NCBI GenBank assembly: GCA_018650645.1 | Contig: JABIFP010000027.1 | Coordinates: 24,379-88,378, forward strand | DNA length: 64,000 nucleotides | Direction of reading: 5' to 3' | DNA from: Candidatus Magasanikiibacteriota bacterium | GTDB taxonomy: Bacteria; Patescibacteriota; Patescibacteriia; Magasanikbacterales; UBA922 | Part shown: piece by piece, positions 1,459-45,680 of the stretch | Position numbering within the stretch: position 1 is the first letter of the stretch | How the letters are laid out: the number at the start of each line of letters is the position of its first letter | Translations under genes and position numbers: made by a program | Notes under the pieces: generated by a model | Seen by the model: only the letters and a program-made list of their open reading frames with translations | Told to the model about the DNA's origin: nothing | Databases searched by the model: none

Positions 1459-1501
1459 ATATAAAACAAAAATCTCCTATTATGGAGATTTTTGCATATT
1501 G

Positions 1502-1574
1502 TGACCCGGGTGGGATTCGAACCCACGACCGTCGGCTTAAAAGGCCGCTGCTCTACCAACTGAGCTACCAGGTC
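1502..1574 (-). tRNA. tRNA-Lys (anticodon UUU), CCA not encoded
   Basis: Reverse complement gives GACCTGGTAGCTCAGTTGGTAGAGCAGCGGCCTTTTAAGCCG...GGTTCGAATCCCACCCGGGTCA. The 7-bp acceptor stem, D, anticodon and T arms all fold. Anticodon loop is CUUUUAA. Confidence 0.85.
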
Positions 1575-7136: not shown

Positions 7137-7165
7137 TTGACAGTGGACGACAATTATTATATACT
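7137..7165 (+). promoter_or_regulatory. sigma70-like promoter TTGACA-N17-TATACT upstream of tRNA-Gln
   Basis: TTGACA at 7137-7142, 17-nt spacer, TATACT at 7160-7165. Confidence 0.5.
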
Positions 7166-7213: not shown

Positions 7214-7284
7214 TCGGAGATCGTCTAATGGTAGGACTCTAGGTTTTGATCCTAGCTATCGGGGTTCGAATCCCTGTCTCCGAG
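7214..7284 (+). tRNA. tRNA-Gln (anticodon UUG)
   Basis: TCGGAGATCGTCTAATGGTAGGACTCTAGGTTTTGATCCTAGCTATCGGGGTTCGAATCCCTGTCTCCGAG. The cloverleaf folds, with a U1-A72 acceptor pair and anticodon loop UUUUGAU. Confidence 0.8.
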
Positions 7285-7426
7285 CGAATAAAAAAGCTCT
7301 GCTTTTTTATTTGAGAGGTGCAGGAGATGAGAACCTTTAGGTTCGACCGCCTAGTGGAGCGAGTCAAGAGGGTAGTTCTATCCTTTTGTGAGCGAAGTGC
7401 CGGTGGAACGAGGGCGTAGCCCGAGT

Positions 7427-7443
7427 AATCCCTGTCTCCGAGC
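7427..7443 (+). repeat. exact 17-bp direct repeat of the tRNA-Gln 3' end (AATCCCTGTCTCCGAGC), first copy at 7269-7285
   Basis: Identical 17-mer found 158 bp downstream of the tRNA 3' end. A palindromic terminator-like AAAAAAGCTCTGCTTTTTT lies in between. Confidence 0.8.
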
Positions 7444-7510
7444 AAGCAGTATTGATGTGATAAGAATAATCACGTATACTACTGCCAGCGCATATGCGCA
7501 ACCATACCAT

Positions 7511-7931
7511 TCGACGGTAGCTCAGTGGTAGAGCAGTTGGCTGTATCCAACATGTAAGTCGAAGTGAAAACCGTCATGTTTCCACCTTCATCGGTGGGGC
7601 AGGGCAAGCTACGACTGCAAAAATGCAGCCCTCAACAGGAATGTTGAGGTGAATAACGAGGTGAACTGCTGGAAGCCCTCTATTGATGCAAATCAATCGG
7701 GTAATCAGCAGCCAAGCCCCACGCACTTTTTCTTTATTGATGTGTGGGGAAGGTTCAGAGACTATCCCTTGCGGGAGTACTCTCCACATTTGTGGAGGGG
7801 AAGCGCCTCGCACCCGGCCGTCCCTTTCCAAGAGAAGGGTTATGACGAGGGTGATGATATAGTCCACGCTTCAGTGAGAATTGAAGATTGCGTGTAACCA
7901 ATTGGTCGCGAGTTCGAATCTCGCCCGTCGA
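7511..7931 (+). tRNA. tRNA-Asn (anticodon GUU) interrupted by a group I intron in the anticodon loop (exons 7511-7544 and 7895-7931)
   Basis: Joined exons give TCGACGGTAGCTCAGTGGTAGAGCAGTTGGCTGT|TAACCAATTGGTCGCGAGTTCGAATCTCGCCCGTCGAG. This is nearly identical in D-arm and anticodon arm to bacterial tRNA-Asn (e.g. GGCTGTTAACC). The 7-bp acceptor stem is TCGACGG/CCGTCGA. Confidence 0.8.
7545..7894 (+). ncRNA. group I self-splicing intron (tRNA-Leu/IC3-like core) inserted between anticodon positions 35 and 36
   Basis: 5' exon ends in U and the intron ends in G. Conserved R element GGTTCAGAGACTA at 7752-7764 and S element GATATAGTCC at about 7855-7866. CTTGCGGGAG follows R, as in the Anabaena tRNA-Leu intron. 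An 8-bp P2-like hairpin CCTCAACA-GGAA-TGTTGAGG follows a candidate internal guide GCAGCC. Confidence 0.7.
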
Positions 7932-7933
7932 GC

Positions 7934-7970
7934 AAAAAAAACGAAGCCTAGGTTTGGCTTCGTTTTTTTG
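7934..7970 (+). terminator. rho-independent terminator after tRNA-Asn (AACGAAGCC-TAGGTTT-GGCTTCGTT followed by a T-run)
   Basis: Perfect 9-bp stem flanked by an A8 run and a T7 run. Confidence 0.75.
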
Positions 7971-20545: not shown

Positions 20546-23500
20546 ATGTTACAGTTTTGGAATTTCTTCATTAAGAATAGTAAATTTACGCTCCTTCTTG
20601 CTGCTTCAGCAGCCTTATTTGGGCTTGTTGCAGCTGCACAAATGCCAAAAGAATCTCAGCCACAGGTAAACATTCCAATTGGCGTAGTAAATACAGTATT
20701 TCCTGGAGCCAGTGTAGAAGATGTAGAAGAACTTATTACAAATACGATTGAAGATAAGCTCTCTGGTCTTGATCAAGTAGAGGAAATTACTTCGCAGTCA
20801 AAGAGTGGAATCTCTTCGGTTGTTGTCCAGTTTAGTGCTGACGCAGATACAGATGAAATGATTGGCGATCTAAAAGATGCTGTTGATCTCGCTAAAATCG
20901 ACTTACCTGATGAGGCTAATGATCCAATTGTTAGACAAGTGAGTTTAGATGATCAGCCATTTCTTACCCTAGCACTAAGCGGGCCGTTTGATGTGGCACA
21001 GCTAAAAGTGTATGCAGATGAATTGAAATCTGAAATTGAACGAGTTGGAAATATTTCAGCCGTACAAATTTTGGGTGGAAGAGATAGGGAAGTGCAGGTC
21101 GTTGTAAATAAAGAATCATTAGACAACTTCAATCTGTCACTGCCAGCTGTAGTTCAGGCAATCTCACAGGCAAATTCAGACATTCCCATCGGATCGATTA
21201 TTACTGGTGGAGAGGAATTTTCACTTCGATTTGCCGGAAGATTAGCGTCAGCTGATGAAGTAGCTAATGTTGCTATTACTGCAATTGATGGTGTGCCAGT
21301 ATTTGTAAGAGATATTGCTACCGTAAGTGATGGTTATACTGAGCCTGTTAAATCAGTGCAACTAAGTACCGCTGGAGCTTCAGCAGAAGCTGCGGTTTCA
21401 ATTCGAGTATTTAAATCTGACGGCGGGGGAGACGTGACGAAAATCGCAGCAGAGATTATTGAGCTATCAAAAACTGTTTCAGCAGAACGATTTCCTGGCG
21501 CAGTAAGCGTGCAAACAACTGAAAACCTGGCTGATTATATTCAGGAGGACCTTACGGGTCTCATGAGAAATGGAATTGCTACAGTAATAATTGTATCGCT
21601 TCTTCTTGCACTCTTTTTGGGGTGGAGAGAAGCGCTTATGGCTGCAATCGCCATTCCAATGTCGTTTCTGATTACCTTCATTATTCTGTTTTACGCAGGA
21701 TACACAATTAATTTCATGACATTGTTTTCACTTATCCTTTCATTGGGGATTTTGGTGGATAGTACTATTGTGATTAATGAGAGTCTGAACAAAAAAATGC
21801 TAACCGGAAAGCCGGCGCGAGAAGCTGCGTTAGAGAGTGTAAAAGAATTGCAGTTTCCACTCATTACCGGAACACTCACAACAATTTTTGCTTTTTTGCC
21901 TATGCTTTTGACTGGCGGCATGATGGGGCAATTCATTAAAACCATTCCTATTACCGTAACAGCAGTACTTACAGCATCACTATTTGTTGCGTTAGCAATT
22001 TTAACAACACTTACGGTAGTTATTACAGAAAGAAAACGAAAGAAGCTAAAAGTTGCTGACCATCCCGTGCAGGCAGAAAAGACTCGCTTTTCAAAGATTT
22101 TTGACGATGCAAGAACAGCGTACGGAGTACAGTTACGTTCATTTATGAATAGCGCCGCAAAAAGAAAGAACCTCAAGCGTTTGCTTATTGTGCTCTTTAT
22201 TCTTATGTATGCGCTTCCAATGTCTGGGATTTTGCGCACAGAGCTGTTTCCACCAGAAGATGCAGACTCGTTTGCGATCGATTTACAAAAAGATTTTGGA
22301 ACACCACTTGAACAAACCCAGCTATCCATAACAAGCTTGGCTGAAGAGCTATACGCAGACGAGCGAGTTGCATCGCTTGTTATTAATAGCGGATTCAGTG
22401 GAGCGCTCGGAAGTCAGTCTGGCGGCGGTGAGGGATCTCACTTGGCGCACATTATGGTAAACCTTAATAAAGATCGTGATCAAGCGAGCTTTGATGTACT
22501 TGATGAGTATCAGGAAAAGTTTGCATCAGCACCGCAAGGAACGATTTCTGTTACGCAACCCGGATATGGTCCTGGAGCAGCAGCCCCGGTTGAACTTACA
22601 ATCACGGGAGACGATCTAAAAACCCTTGATGAACTCGCAGCTCAAATTACGACGCTGGTGAGTTCTATTGAAGGAACACAAAACGTAAAAAGTTCAGTTA
22701 TTAGTACAAATGGACAGTTTGTGACCTATATTGATCGCGCACGAGCGGCACAATATGGTGTAACCGCATCAGATGTTGCCTTTGTGCTCAGAACAGCGGT
22801 TAATGGCGTATCTGCAACAGAAATCTCTCAAGACGGAGAGGATGTTGATGTAACCGTACGCTATGGACTCTCTAACGCCGCATTTGCTCCTGAGACAGTA
22901 AATAAGCGTTCAGTTGACCTATCTACCATAGAAGGTCTTACTATCTCAACACGGGAAGGCAACGTGCCGCTTTTGGCACTTGCAGATATACGATTAGATA
23001 ATAGCAGATCTGGAATTTCTCATGAAGACACAAATCGTGTGGTAAAGGTAACCAGTTACTTAAGTAGCGCCGTTTCGCCGGCGCAAGTATTTGGAGCTAT
23101 TGATAGTCGACTCAGTGAAATTGAGCTGCCAGAGGGCTATACAGTAGCTGCAGGTGGAGAAGATGAGGAAACACAGGAATCACTTAACGATATGTTCCGT
23201 GCAATGATACTTGCCGCAATTTTGATTGCCGCACTTATGGTCTTGCAGTTCCAATCGTTCAGACAGGCATTCATTATTCTGACAACTATTCCTCTTGCAC
23301 TGATTGGTGTATTCCCAGGATTGCTGCTCGTTGGGCAACCACTGAGTTTCCCGGGAATGATTGGGATTGTTGCGCTTGCAGGTATTGTGGTAAATAATGC
23401 CATTATCCTTATCGATAAAATTAACTTGAGTCAAAAGCAGGGAATGAATGTGCAAGACGCATTAGTGGCTGGAGGACAGGCAAGACTAGAGCCGATTATT

Positions 23501-23665
23501 CTGACAACTATTACAACAGTGTTTGGTATTTTACCACTCGCACTTACACAGCCACTTTGGGCATCGCTTGGATATGCAATTATCTTTGGGCTATTGTTCT
23601 CAACAATGTTGACGCTGTTTGTTGTGCCACTGCTGTATAATCGATTGTATAAAAACAAAAAGTAA
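20546..23665 (+). CDS. RND superfamily efflux permease (AcrB/AcrD/AcrF family)
   Basis: 1039 aa with 12 TM helices and two large periplasmic loops. Conserved AcrB-like TM4/TM10 regions. Confidence 0.9.
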   Translation: MLQFWNFFIKNSKFTLLLAASAALFGLVAAAQMPKESQPQVNIPIGVVNTVFPGASVEDVEELITNTIEDKLSGLDQVEEITSQSKSGISSVVVQFSADADTDEMIGDLKDAVDLAKIDLPDEANDPIVRQVSLDDQPFLTLALSGPFDVAQLKVYADELKSEIERVGNISAVQILGGRDREVQVVVNKESLDNFNLSLPAVVQAISQANSDIPIGSIITGGEEFSLRFAGRLASADEVANVAITAIDGVPVFVRDIATVSDGYTEPVKSVQLSTAGASAEAAVSIRVFKSDGGGDVTKIAAEIIELSKTVSAERFPGAVSVQTTENLADYIQEDLTGLMRNGIATVIIVSLLLALFLGWREALMAAIAIPMSFLITFIILFYAGYTINFMTLFSLILSLGILVDSTIVINESLNKKMLTGKPAREAALESVKELQFPLITGTLTTIFAFLPMLLTGGMMGQFIKTIPITVTAVLTASLFVALAILTTLTVVITERKRKKLKVADHPVQAEKTRFSKIFDDARTAYGVQLRSFMNSAAKRKNLKRLLIVLFILMYALPMSGILRTELFPPEDADSFAIDLQKDFGTPLEQTQLSITSLAEELYADERVASLVINSGFSGALGSQSGGGEGSHLAHIMVNLNKDRDQASFDVLDEYQEKFASAPQGTISVTQPGYGPGAAAPVELTITGDDLKTLDELAAQITTLVSSIEGTQNVKSSVISTNGQFVTYIDRARAAQYGVTASDVAFVLRTAVNGVSATEISQDGEDVDVTVRYGLSNAAFAPETVNKRSVDLSTIEGLTISTREGNVPLLALADIRLDNSRSGISHEDTNRVVKVTSYLSSAVSPAQVFGAIDSRLSEIELPEGYTVAAGGEDEETQESLNDMFRAMILAAILIAALMVLQFQSFRQAFIILTTIPLALIGVFPGLLLVGQPLSFPGMIGIVALAGIVVNNAIILIDKINLSQKQGMNVQDALVAGGQARLEPIILTTITTVFGILPLALTQPLWASLGYAIIFGLLFSTMLTLFVVPLLYNRLYKNKK

Positions 23666-44838: not shown

Positions 44839-45000
44839 AGTCTTTGTTTTTTTGTCTTGCTCATCGCAATGCGACAAACAAAAAACTGTGGAAAACCACA
44901 GACCTTCAGAGTGTTGCATCGACCTTTGAGAAATAATTCTCATGTTGCACCTCGGTAGCCTATTTAATCCCGAAGGAAGCTACTGTCTATGGTTGGCGAT

Positions 45001-45029
45001 ATTATATAGAAATTCCCCATAAATGTCAA
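45001..45029 (-). promoter_or_regulatory. consensus sigma70 promoter (TTGACA-N17-TATAAT) for the rplJ-rplL operon
   Basis: Reverse complement of 45001-45029 reads TTGACATTTATGGGGAATTTCTATATAAT. A perfect 8-bp hairpin (45032-45050) lies immediately upstream. Confidence 0.6.
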
Positions 45030-45320: not shown

Positions 45321-45349
45321 TCTGGGCGCATTATATAGATAATTGCACC
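45321..45349 (-). promoter_or_regulatory. consensus sigma70 promoter (TTGACA-N17-TATAAT), near-duplicate of the rplJ promoter
   Basis: Reverse complement reads TTGACATGAGGTGCAATTATCTATATAAT. About 22 of 29 positions match the 45001-45029 copy. Confidence 0.5.
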
Positions 45350-45376
45350 TCATGTCAACCCCTCTGGATAAATCTA

Positions 45377-45405
45377 TTGACAGCTTCACTAAACCTCTAT
45401 ATAAT
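45377..45405 (+). promoter_or_regulatory. consensus sigma70 promoter (TTGACA-N17-TATAAT) for tRNA-Glu
   Basis: TTGACAGCTTCACTAAACCTCTATATAAT, ending 9 nt before the tRNA start. Confidence 0.6.
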
Positions 45406-45414
45406 AATGCACAT

Positions 45415-45486
45415 GTCGCCATCGTCTAGTGGTTAGGACTCCGGGTTTTCATCCCGGCAACAGGAGTTCGATTCTCCTTGGCGATA
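45415..45486 (+). tRNA. tRNA-Glu (anticodon UUC)
   Basis: GTCGCCATCGTCTAGTGGTTAGGACTCCGGGTTTTCATCCCGGCAACAGGAGTTCGATTCTCCTTGGCGATA. Cloverleaf folds with a G1-U72 wobble. Resembles bacterial tRNA-Glu. Confidence 0.8.
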
Positions 45487-45604
45487 CTACAAGGGGTGTT
45501 TACAAGAGGAATCGAACCAGGGTTGGTAAGGGACAGCGTCCCTTACATCTGGTGGAAAGGTTGGGAAAACATGAAGTGTTCCCAAAGCGCGCAGACGCGT
45601 GTGA

Positions 45605-45622
45605 GATTCTCCTTGGCGATAC
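45605..45622 (+). repeat. exact 18-bp direct repeat of the tRNA-Glu 3' end (GATTCTCCTTGGCGATAC), first copy at 45470-45487
   Basis: Identical 18-mer 135 bp downstream. The intervening segment contains a reverse-oriented T-loop-like GGTTCGATTCC fragment. Confidence 0.8.
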
Positions 45623-45680
45623 CAATAGAGTGAAATCAAAATAGTGGCCAACGGGCCACTATTTTGTTAGGATAAATTAT

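Follow-up and report, generated by a model that had tools for sequence, protein, structure and literature searches.

Copies of tRNA 3' ends behind two tRNA genes of a Magasanikbacteria genome resemble the tRNA-linked repeats of Escherichia coli

We examined a window of 64,000 nucleotides from a Candidatus Magasanikiibacteriota bacterium (contig JABIFP010000027.1 of assembly GCA_018650645.1), a member of the Candidate Phyla Radiation (CPR). In this window, the genes for tRNA-Gln and tRNA-Glu are each followed by a short element that ends in a second copy of the 3' end belonging to the tRNA just upstream. The element behind tRNA-Gln occupies positions 7286-7443, and its twin behind tRNA-Glu occupies positions 45488-45622. 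The ftsX gene lies upstream of the Gln locus, and contigs of the same species come from environmental, apparently marine, metagenomes; the marine samples JGI 3300024259 and 3300028706 contain it. Both loci were compared with those of a sister organism, the metagenome-assembled genome GCA_041294365.1, which is the closest available relative (FtsX 81% identical, TsaD 69% identical). Fetched loci are cited below by their L numbers. The Gln locus is laid out as follows.

7137-7165, + strand: promoter-like site of the tRNA-Gln operon, TTGACA-17-TATACT, agreeing with 11/12 consensus positions; a related sequence is kept in the sister (L109).
7214-7285, + strand: tRNA-Gln(UUG), called by ARAGORN at 7214-7285 and by Rfam RF00005 at 7214-7284 (60.4 bits); discriminator G7284 is followed by C7285.
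7269-7285, + strand: tail copy 1, from A58 to the 3' end plus one base (AATCCCTGTCTCCGAGC), found by exact search and repeat finding.
7287-7311, + strand: perfect AT-rich palindrome with 11-nt arms and a 3-nt loop, AATAAAAAAGC-tct-GCTTTTTTATT, seen in the sequence and as a hairpin in the minimum free energy (MFE) fold.
7306-7444, + strand: span covered by an end-to-end alignment to Rfam RF00391 (RtT RNA), which scores a sub-threshold 19.6 bits.
7313-7335, + strand: candidate degenerate reverse complement of the tRNA-Gln 3' region, GAGAGGTG-CAGGaGAT-GAGAACC, which contains GAUGAGAAC; local alignment p = 0.16.
7336-7426, + strand: hairpin-rich core with stems at 7366-7387 and 7412-7422, ending in ...CCCGAGU directly before the tail.
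7427-7443, + strand: tail copy 2, followed by AAGC, the 4 nt that stand behind tRNA-Gln in the sister.
7452-7480, + strand: weak promoter-like site between the element and tRNA-Asn, TTGATG-17-TATACT, agreeing with 9/12 positions.
7511-7933, + strand: tRNA-Asn(GUU) with a 350-nt group I intron, the last gene of the operon (ARAGORN intron detection; Rfam RF00028 at 7609-7886, 83.7 bits).
7935-7969, + strand: intrinsic terminator of the Gln operon, called by the terminator scan.

An initial annotation of the window, made from the sequence alone, had described a palindromic, terminator-like element in the spacer between the two tails. The palindrome is indeed present at 7287-7311, but its stem has only 2 G-C pairs, and the terminator scan of the Gln region made no call at this position. 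Farther downstream, the 67-nt spacer that leads from tail copy 2 to tRNA-Asn is specific to the window and holds the weak promoter-like site. Perhaps tRNA-Asn gained a promoter of its own together with the insertion. The intron of tRNA-Asn sits between the second and third anticodon bases, an arrangement that the sister shares with an intron of 307 nt (L109 4083-4462).

Within the 64-kb window, AATCCCTGTCTCCGAGC occurs exactly twice, at 7269-7285 and 7427-7443, both times on the + strand, with 0 mismatches and at a spacing of 158. Two matches were found in 0 of 100 dinucleotide shuffles. Copy 1 comprises the last 16 nt of tRNA-Gln(UUG), running from T-loop A58 through the T-stem 3' strand and the acceptor 3' strand to the discriminator, and one further C. 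The exact 17-bp copy reported in the initial annotation thus holds up, and so does the parallel it drew with tRNA-Glu. There, the equivalent is the 18-nt sequence GATTCTCCTTGGCGATAC, found at the end of tRNA-Glu (45470-45487) and again at 45605-45622, with a spacing of 135. The tail starts at T-loop position 58 for Gln (17 nt) and position 57 for Glu (18 nt), and it is identical to the 3' end of the upstream tRNA over 17/17 and 18/18 positions, respectively. Between the tail copies lie 141 nt at the Gln locus and 117 nt at the Glu locus. Pairs of 14-mers that repeat within 600 nt are found four times in the whole window, and two of these four are the tails of tRNA-Gln and tRNA-Glu. The duplication is not an assembly artefact, because independent assemblies of this species from ENA and JGI (L002, L003, L004, and L114) show an unchanged structure with an identical Gln tail duplication.

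All four tRNA genes of the window (1501-1574, 7214-7285, 7511-7933, and 45415-45487) end in the discriminator followed by C, and CCA is not encoded. Many CPR tRNA genes in the fetched loci have the same ending.

At the Glu locus, the promoter-like site and tRNA-Glu are followed by a body of 117 nt and by tail copy 2, behind which stand a terminator hairpin and then tsaD.

45377-45405, + strand: promoter-like site of tRNA-Glu, TTGACA-17-TATAAT, agreeing with 12/12 positions.
45415-45487, + strand: tRNA-Glu(UUC), with tail copy 1 at 45470-45487 (ARAGORN, Rfam, and repeat finding).
45503-45517, + strand: reverse complement of the tRNA-Glu T-arm, CAAGAGGAATCGAAC against GTTCGATTCTCCTTG, 15 nt with 87% complementarity; shuffle p = 0.006.
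45518-45604, + strand: core with three hairpins in the MFE fold (45526-45546, 45561-45585, and ~45590-45603).
45605-45622, + strand: tail copy 2; behind it come the ancestral flank, CCAA..., and then the conserved terminator.
45638-45667, + strand: terminator hairpin ATAGTGGCC-aacg-GGCCACTAT-TTT, recognised from its sequence and kept in the sister (L117), where it stands directly behind tRNA-Glu.

A consensus terminator scan of the Glu region made no call, including at the hairpin 45638-45667. From the positions of these features, a promoter upstream and a terminator downstream are predicted for both the Gln and the Glu units. Perfect promoter-like sites stand back to back at this locus (45330-45358 on the - strand and 45377-45405 on the + strand). 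Divergent from the tRNA-Glu promoter is a ribosomal protein L10 leader (Rfam RF00557, 54.3 bits) at 44868-45010 on the - strand, upstream of rplJ/rplL. Elsewhere in the window, an 18-nt exact direct repeat, ATTATTCTGACAACTATT, occurs at 23273-23290 and 23495-23512, 222 nt apart, and has no relation to any tRNA.

Comparison of orthologous loci, which the initial annotation had proposed, revealed that the sister has the same operons and both tRNAs and carries neither element. Behind its tRNA-Gln, 24 nt lead to an intron-containing tRNA-Asn (L109), and its tRNA-Glu is followed directly by CCAAACGAAATAGTGGCC... and a terminator (L117). In the window, this ancestral flank comes after the second tail, and the Glu match consists of CCAA and the whole conserved terminator. 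Judged from these alignments, it is convincing that the 135-nt difference at the Glu locus is bounded exactly by the tail repeat. The same boundary appears less certain for the 158-nt difference at the Gln locus because the additional 67-nt spacer differs as well. Given the exact boundary at the Glu locus, the element probably arose by, or is removable through, a duplicative event at the tRNA 3' end. More distant relatives have empty sites as well, both behind tRNA-Gln (L110) and behind tRNA-Glu (L120, L122/L123, and L124), and the element is absent from most of ~60 FtsX-tRNA-Gln loci across CPR. A gain in the lineage of the window is the more parsimonious account, although precise loss via slippage between the 17-18-nt direct repeats would leave the same pattern.

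Elements of this layout are known from Escherichia coli as tRNA-linked repeats (TLRs). According to the summary by Stenum et al. 2021 (PMC8144298), which covers the work of Egan & Landy 1978 and Rudd 1999, they were first described in 1978, and they are described there only from E. coli and its relatives. The same source counts 22 TLR copies at ten loci in E. coli K-12, places RtT in this class, and gives as the defining feature 18-19 bp that exactly match the 3' end of whichever tRNA or 5S gene lies upstream. For the three TLRs that follow 5S rRNA, it reports a position between terminators T1 and T2, synthesis by read-through, and trimming right after the repeat. We examined the sequences of the E. 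coli rrnB and tyrT loci and found the same layout as in the window elements. At tyrT, each RtT unit ends in AAUCCUUCCCCCACCACCA, which is the last 19 nt of tRNA-Tyr and starts at T-loop A58. The palindrome at 7287-7311 sits at the terminator-T1 position of other TLRs.

At gathering thresholds, Rfam reported nothing in the Gln or Glu spacer. When the scan was made permissive, RF00391 (RtT RNA) was the sole family to align end to end with the Gln element, covering the whole model (positions 1-130 of 130); the E-value was 0.095 when 175 nt were scanned and 0.6 for 1.1 kb. This alignment holds the shared blocks GAUGAGAAC and CGAGUAAUCC. The RtT model also aligned end to end with an independent CPR element (L116, 17.0 bits), among many hairpin-driven matches. 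The initial annotation had named a known structured RNA in the spacer as one outcome that would overturn its reading. RtT goes halfway toward this outcome, as it alone aligns end to end, below the Rfam cut-off.

An exact-motif scan for GAGAASCTT..AGGTTCGA..AGTAATCCV over 185,579 species genomes yielded 0 matches, with a pattern that was too strict and a collection in which the species of the window is not among the representatives. Scanning viral contigs with the 5' motif gave 22 matches; they fell in coding sequence, in genuine tRNA T-arms, or, in a contig labelled as prophage, in E. coli RtT.

To look for recurrence, every tRNA of the fetched loci was scanned for a downstream copy of its own tail, and one metagenome scan was made for a tail...tail arrangement with the tail of the window's tRNA-Gln. 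The initial annotation had likewise proposed a search for other duplicated tRNA 3' ends, within the genome itself; the scans made here turned up further cases in other CPR loci. Those of class A are window-like and comprise L030 (tRNA-Gln), L032 (tRNA-Thr), L068 (tRNA-Gln CUG), and L115 and L116 (tRNA-Gln CUG). Those of class B (L112, L059, L041, L043, and L060) carry a recognisable direct partial copy of the tRNA that is broken by short G+C hairpins. The class A repeat starts at or beside T-loop position 58, whereas the class B repeat reaches deeper into the tRNA. In four of the class B loci (L059, L041, L043, and L060), at least the T-stem 5' strand is retained (p 0.000-0.009 for direct similarity), and L112 (5129-5284) is a tRNA-Gln copy without the first 5 nt only, with insertions in the D loop and the anticodon loop. 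The class B hairpins have the form NCGCC-loop-GGCGN, and their sites are the D loop, the anticodon loop, or the T-loop. The class B loci may represent young stages of TLRs or a separate kind of tiny palindromic insertion.

In L030, L115, and L116, the order is tRNA, a strong bidirectional terminator palindrome, body, tail, and a second terminator, which mirrors the T1-TLR-T2 arrangement of rrnB. The body of the window Gln element resembles those of L115/L116 (z ~5), that of the window Glu element resembles the tRNA-Thr element of L032 (z = 4.2), and the latter resembles the tRNA-Gln element of L068 (z = 7.6), with which it shares a hairpin, GGGAA(A/C)CGGGAG(G/T)TTCCC, that is derived from neither tRNA. 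The motifs AGAGGG..CCUUUUGUGAG..GCGAAG are common to the Gln core and the tRNA-Thr element of L032. Within the window, the Gln and Glu bodies show no resemblance to each other (p = 0.82). A covariance model (R1) built from E. coli RtT and the window Gln, L115, and L116 elements ranked the unseen L030 element first, with an E-value of only 0.07. On sequence grounds, we distinguish what appear to be at least two subfamilies, a GAUGAGAA type and a GGAAUCGAACC type, which have one architecture and ends that match the local tRNA. Counting E. coli, this architecture stands behind at least four kinds of stable-RNA gene.

Most class A bodies begin with a reverse complement of the local T-arm and acceptor 3' strand, which gives a direct-inverted-direct arrangement. 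At the window Glu locus, CAAGAGGAATCGAAC corresponds to the reverse complement of the tRNA, CAAGGAGAATCGAAC, with the significance listed above. The inverted copy is also significant in L030 (p = 0.001), L032 (p = 0.001), and L068 (p = 0.002), where it mirrors the unusual TCCGAT T-loop of its own tRNA, as well as in E. coli RtT (GGGGAAGGATGAGAAGCTTCG versus GGGGAAGGATTCGAACCTTCG, p<0.001). The match reaches p = 0.07-0.16 in the window Gln, L115, and L116 elements. What weakens it there is a two-base change, also present in E. coli RtT, by which AUUCGAA, the T-loop in reverse, is replaced by AUGAGAA. The sequence GGAUGAGAA, which corresponds to the T-arm GGUUCGAAUCC in reverse complement except that GA stands in place of UC, occurs in E. 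coli tyrT (L006), L115, L116, and L059 (~4008), where it adjoins a third, degenerate tail. A near variant, GGAGAUGAGAA, occupies 7324-7333 in the window Gln element. The UGAGA within GGAUGAGAA resembles a general T-loop motif consensus. In L115, the tail, the terminator, and the inverted copy form one long imperfect palindrome in which, by eye, ~78% of 46 positions match. Direct similarity to the tRNA 5' part was absent from class A bodies (p 0.36-0.99), the exception being a weak signal in E. coli (p = 0.018).

Folding of the Gln spacer, also put forward in the initial annotation, gave a structure more stable than shuffles (MFE -55.3 kcal/mol, z = -2.9), and the Glu element stands out further (MFE -55.4 kcal/mol, z = -5.2). 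Each window element is predicted to form a closing stem, in which the 5' part pairs with the tail, and three hairpins. Aligning the E. coli elements with the CPR Gln-type ones gives a closing helix with 92.9% of its cells paired, compared to <=58% for slid controls, and 2 compensatory pairs that set the E. coli-Tyr type apart from the CPR-Gln type. Taken alone, the Gln closing helix has 4/10 positions mismatched. The closing duplex is better than shuffles for Glu (p = 0.03), L115 (p = 0.01), and E. coli (p = 0.01-0.02), and its energy is not significant for L030, L032, and L068. We also considered whether the second tail might act as an insulator, a decoy that shields the tRNA, and discarded this idea because folding with the tail gave no gain in tRNA pair probabilities over folding without it. 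A hammerhead reading of GAUGA-stem-GAC was rejected as well, as the invariant C3, U4, and A14 are missing and no Rfam ribozyme matches the window elements.

Our preferred reading, to which we assign a probability of roughly 60%, is that 7286-7443 and its twin 45488-45622 are TLRs of the E. coli kind, of which RtT is the best-known member. Both window elements display both structural hallmarks of the class and are TLRs by architecture. As a class, TLRs are short non-coding modules right behind a stable-RNA gene and within its transcription unit, ending in the last 17-19 nt of that gene. In the window, the parts are, in order, a palindrome at the terminator-T1 position (Gln only), the T-arm and acceptor 3' strand in degenerate reverse complement (evident at Glu, a candidate at Gln), two or three G+C-rich hairpins, and a direct repeat of the tRNA that begins at T-loop A58 and ends with the base following the discriminator.

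From the positions of promoters and terminators, read-through would transcribe the element as a tRNA trailer or as a spacer between tRNAs. The inverted copy would then pair with the downstream tail to give a terminal helix that resembles a T-stem and acceptor stem and carries the tRNA's own 3' strand, so that the nucleases that mature tRNA ends would release the element. They would trim it into a discrete structured RNA of ~110-140 nt and part it from the neighbouring genes. For E. coli, the release of RrB as a discrete RNA by end-maturation enzymes has been proposed (PMC8144298). The released RNA may be a tolerated by-product. As to origin, two template switches during replication, a fold-back and a return, would leave a direct-inverted-direct pattern around a palindrome.

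Several results weigh against assigning the window elements to the E. coli class. The RtT match of the Gln element does not reach the gathering threshold of 45 bits, and no RtT match was seen for the Glu, L032, and L068 elements in permissive Rfam scans. The covariance model R1 also missed these three elements, which are of the GGAAUCGAACC type, and a single homologous family is thus unproven. A blastn search of all complete E. coli genomes (5,426) found no match for the element. The Gln locus in particular fits less well: its inverted copy is not significant against shuffles (p = 0.16), its closing duplex has the same energy as composition-matched shuffles (p = 0.46), and the flank it shares with the sister amounts to AAGC, only 4 nt. 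When the whole precursor is folded at equilibrium, the inverted copy is predicted to compete with the tRNA by binding the 3' strand of the latter, and leaving out the second tail does not change this. Finally, the tRNA-linked TLRs of E. coli have no established function in the account of PMC8144298.

A bolder version of the TLR reading, which we regard as tentative and on balance doubtful, holds that TLRs are an old and widespread class that extends from E. coli to CPR and attaches behind any stable-RNA gene. The direct-inverted-direct copy of the terminal helix would then be laid down by an undescribed tail-copying mechanism, perhaps a switch of template at the palindrome of the terminator or the T-arm, or else an insertion guided or templated by RNA. 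If this version is true, GGAUGAGAA, the form of the reversed T-loop that keeps recurring, would be a signature of function. The CPR pairs with and without the element would also make the origin and function of TLRs, a question since 1978, directly testable.

Among the alternatives, we first weigh the possibility that each spacer is a degenerated second tRNA-Gln or tRNA-Glu gene from a tandem duplication, whose 3' end was kept by gene conversion or by selection on a processing signal. The class B loci (L112, L059, L041, L043, and L060) do resemble younger stages of such a process, and in E. coli tyrT-tyrV an RtT unit lies between two real tRNA-Tyr genes. The initial annotation had allowed for a degenerate second tRNA gene, but ARAGORN and Rfam found none in either spacer, and the window bodies have no direct similarity to the 55 nt of the tRNA 5' part (p = 0.37 for Gln and 0.36 for Glu), the only similarity being inverted. 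Identity of 17/17 and 18/18 positions beside an unrecognisable body does not look like neutral decay, and the body motifs common to elements behind different tRNAs (L032/L068 and Glu/L032) also argue against it. We therefore consider this explanation unlikely for the window elements. A decayed tandem copy of a tRNA fits the class B loci, and the beginnings of TLRs may perhaps have been of this sort.

It is improbable, in our view, that the elements are instances of an active small mobile element whose conserved, hairpin-rich body inserts at the 3' ends of stable-RNA genes and copies ~17-19 nt of its target by an undescribed mechanism. Such an element would account for the patchy distribution among orthologous loci, including the absence of both window elements from the sister, and for body similarity that crosses tRNA identities and CPR classes. 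The presence of GGAUGAGAA in E. coli and three CPR lineages, with the near variant in the window Gln element, also fits. In E. coli, the core of the 5S TLR rrB (L118 ~400-527), GAACGTTGCGAAGCAACGGCCCGGAGGGTG, is almost the same as the core of the tyrT-tyrV RtT (L006), GAACGTTGCCACAGGCAACGGCCCGAAGGGTG, and their tails differ (5S versus tRNA-Tyr). However, there are no near-identical copies as from a recent burst, as the dissimilar Gln and Glu bodies of the window illustrate, and no transposase candidate stands out. In 4/5 elements, the two copies differ in the base that follows C74, which speaks against a simple target-site duplication of fixed length, and for this reason we rejected a fixed 19-nt target-site duplication. 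Precise loss by slippage between the repeats accounts equally well for the patchiness.

The initial annotation had taken the duplicated tRNA 3' ends as the footprint of integrase-mediated insertion and excision. By this account, the tails are attL and attR cores, and the interior has since been deleted or belongs to a miniature, non-autonomous element mobilised in trans. Parts of this proposal stand: the duplication is not random, the insertion or deletion relative to the sister is bounded by the repeat, and the repeat runs from the T-loop to the 3' end of the gene. Many tRNA-targeting integrases reportedly cross over in the T-loop, and an identity block of this extent is said to be typical of them. 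Moreover, in a related lineage (L122/L123), tRNA-Glu adjoins a large serine recombinase, Zot, and a replication-initiator gene, so tRNA-Glu serves as an integration site in this clade. In these Magasanikbacteria-like loci (L122 969-5132, L123 1465-3028), the 3' end of tRNA-Glu overlaps the end of the serine recombinase gene, and the neighbourhood looks inovirus-like.

The remaining evidence leaves an integrase footprint quite improbable. Only 141 and 117 nt separate the supposed cores, and open reading frames and precomputed Pfam calls revealed no recombinase within ~10 kb on either side of the Gln locus, the Glu flanks not having been screened. No phage similarity was detected, as blastn against all phage records left the body without a match. 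The Glu body carries the local T-arm in inverted orientation, and motifs of the Gln body recur in elements behind other tRNAs and in RtT. Two tRNAs in one genome would require two specificities, and E. coli TLRs also occur behind 5S rRNA, which has no T-loop. The end of the L122 element is unlike the Glu body, and the sister and other relatives have empty sites. The other possibility raised in the initial annotation, a small mobile or structured RNA element associated with the tRNA, lies nearer to the evidence. It is hardly credible that the repeat arose by chance or that the spacer holds a known ribozyme or riboswitch: stable hairpins are present and nothing more speaks for this, the shuffles did not reproduce the repeat, the same architecture appears at a second tRNA and in other genomes, and E-value scans with Rfam found no ribozyme or riboswitch in either window element.

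What is new here is the TLR architecture in a very distant lineage, as the architecture itself is already known and named in E. coli. Its presence in a CPR bacterium argues for a general phenomenon and not a quirk of one order. Our modest additions are clean pairs of loci with and without the element, which can be used to study its origin, and the inverted T-arm copy. The case also carries a warning for annotation, since duplicated tRNA 3' ends alone are no proof of an integrated element.

Like attL and attR cores, the tails are direct repeats of a tRNA 3' part that starts in the T-loop and flank DNA that is absent from relatives. The flanked DNA differs in measuring ~120-140 nt, encoding nothing, and holding an inverted tRNA copy at Glu, and no integrase lies near the Gln locus. 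RtT has in common with the Gln element the blocks GAUGAGAAC, AGGUUCGAC, GAGCGAAG, and GAGU|AAUCC, a small G+C hairpin just before the tail, and, as a candidate feature, a 5' strand complementary to the tail. The two differ in their central hairpins and in the tail, which comes from tRNA-Gln and not from tRNA-Tyr.

TLRs as a class correspond to the window elements in several respects. The elements stand directly downstream of a stable-RNA gene and, by promoter and terminator positions, within its operon. They are hairpin-rich, measure ~100-180 nt, and often lie between a first and a second terminator. The tail equals the last 17-18 nt of the upstream tRNA, compared to the 18-19 bp given for E. 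coli (PMC8144298), and it is 1-2 nt shorter because CCA is not encoded in the window tRNA genes. Differences are that the host belongs to CPR (Magasanikbacteria) and not to Enterobacterales, with no similarity at the level of blastn, and that single units are found here, in contrast to the E. coli arrays of one to five. The presence and absence relative to the sister and the reverse-complement copy of the T-arm are seen here, whereas the treatment of TLRs in PMC8144298 does not state them. The small RNAs RrA, RrB, and RrF (the 5S TLRs of rrnA, rrnB, and rrnD) differ in lying behind 5S rRNA and, as that source describes them, in binding Hfq and CsrA via GGA motifs. They share with the window elements the order of T1, body, an 18-nt copy of the gene 3' end, and T2.

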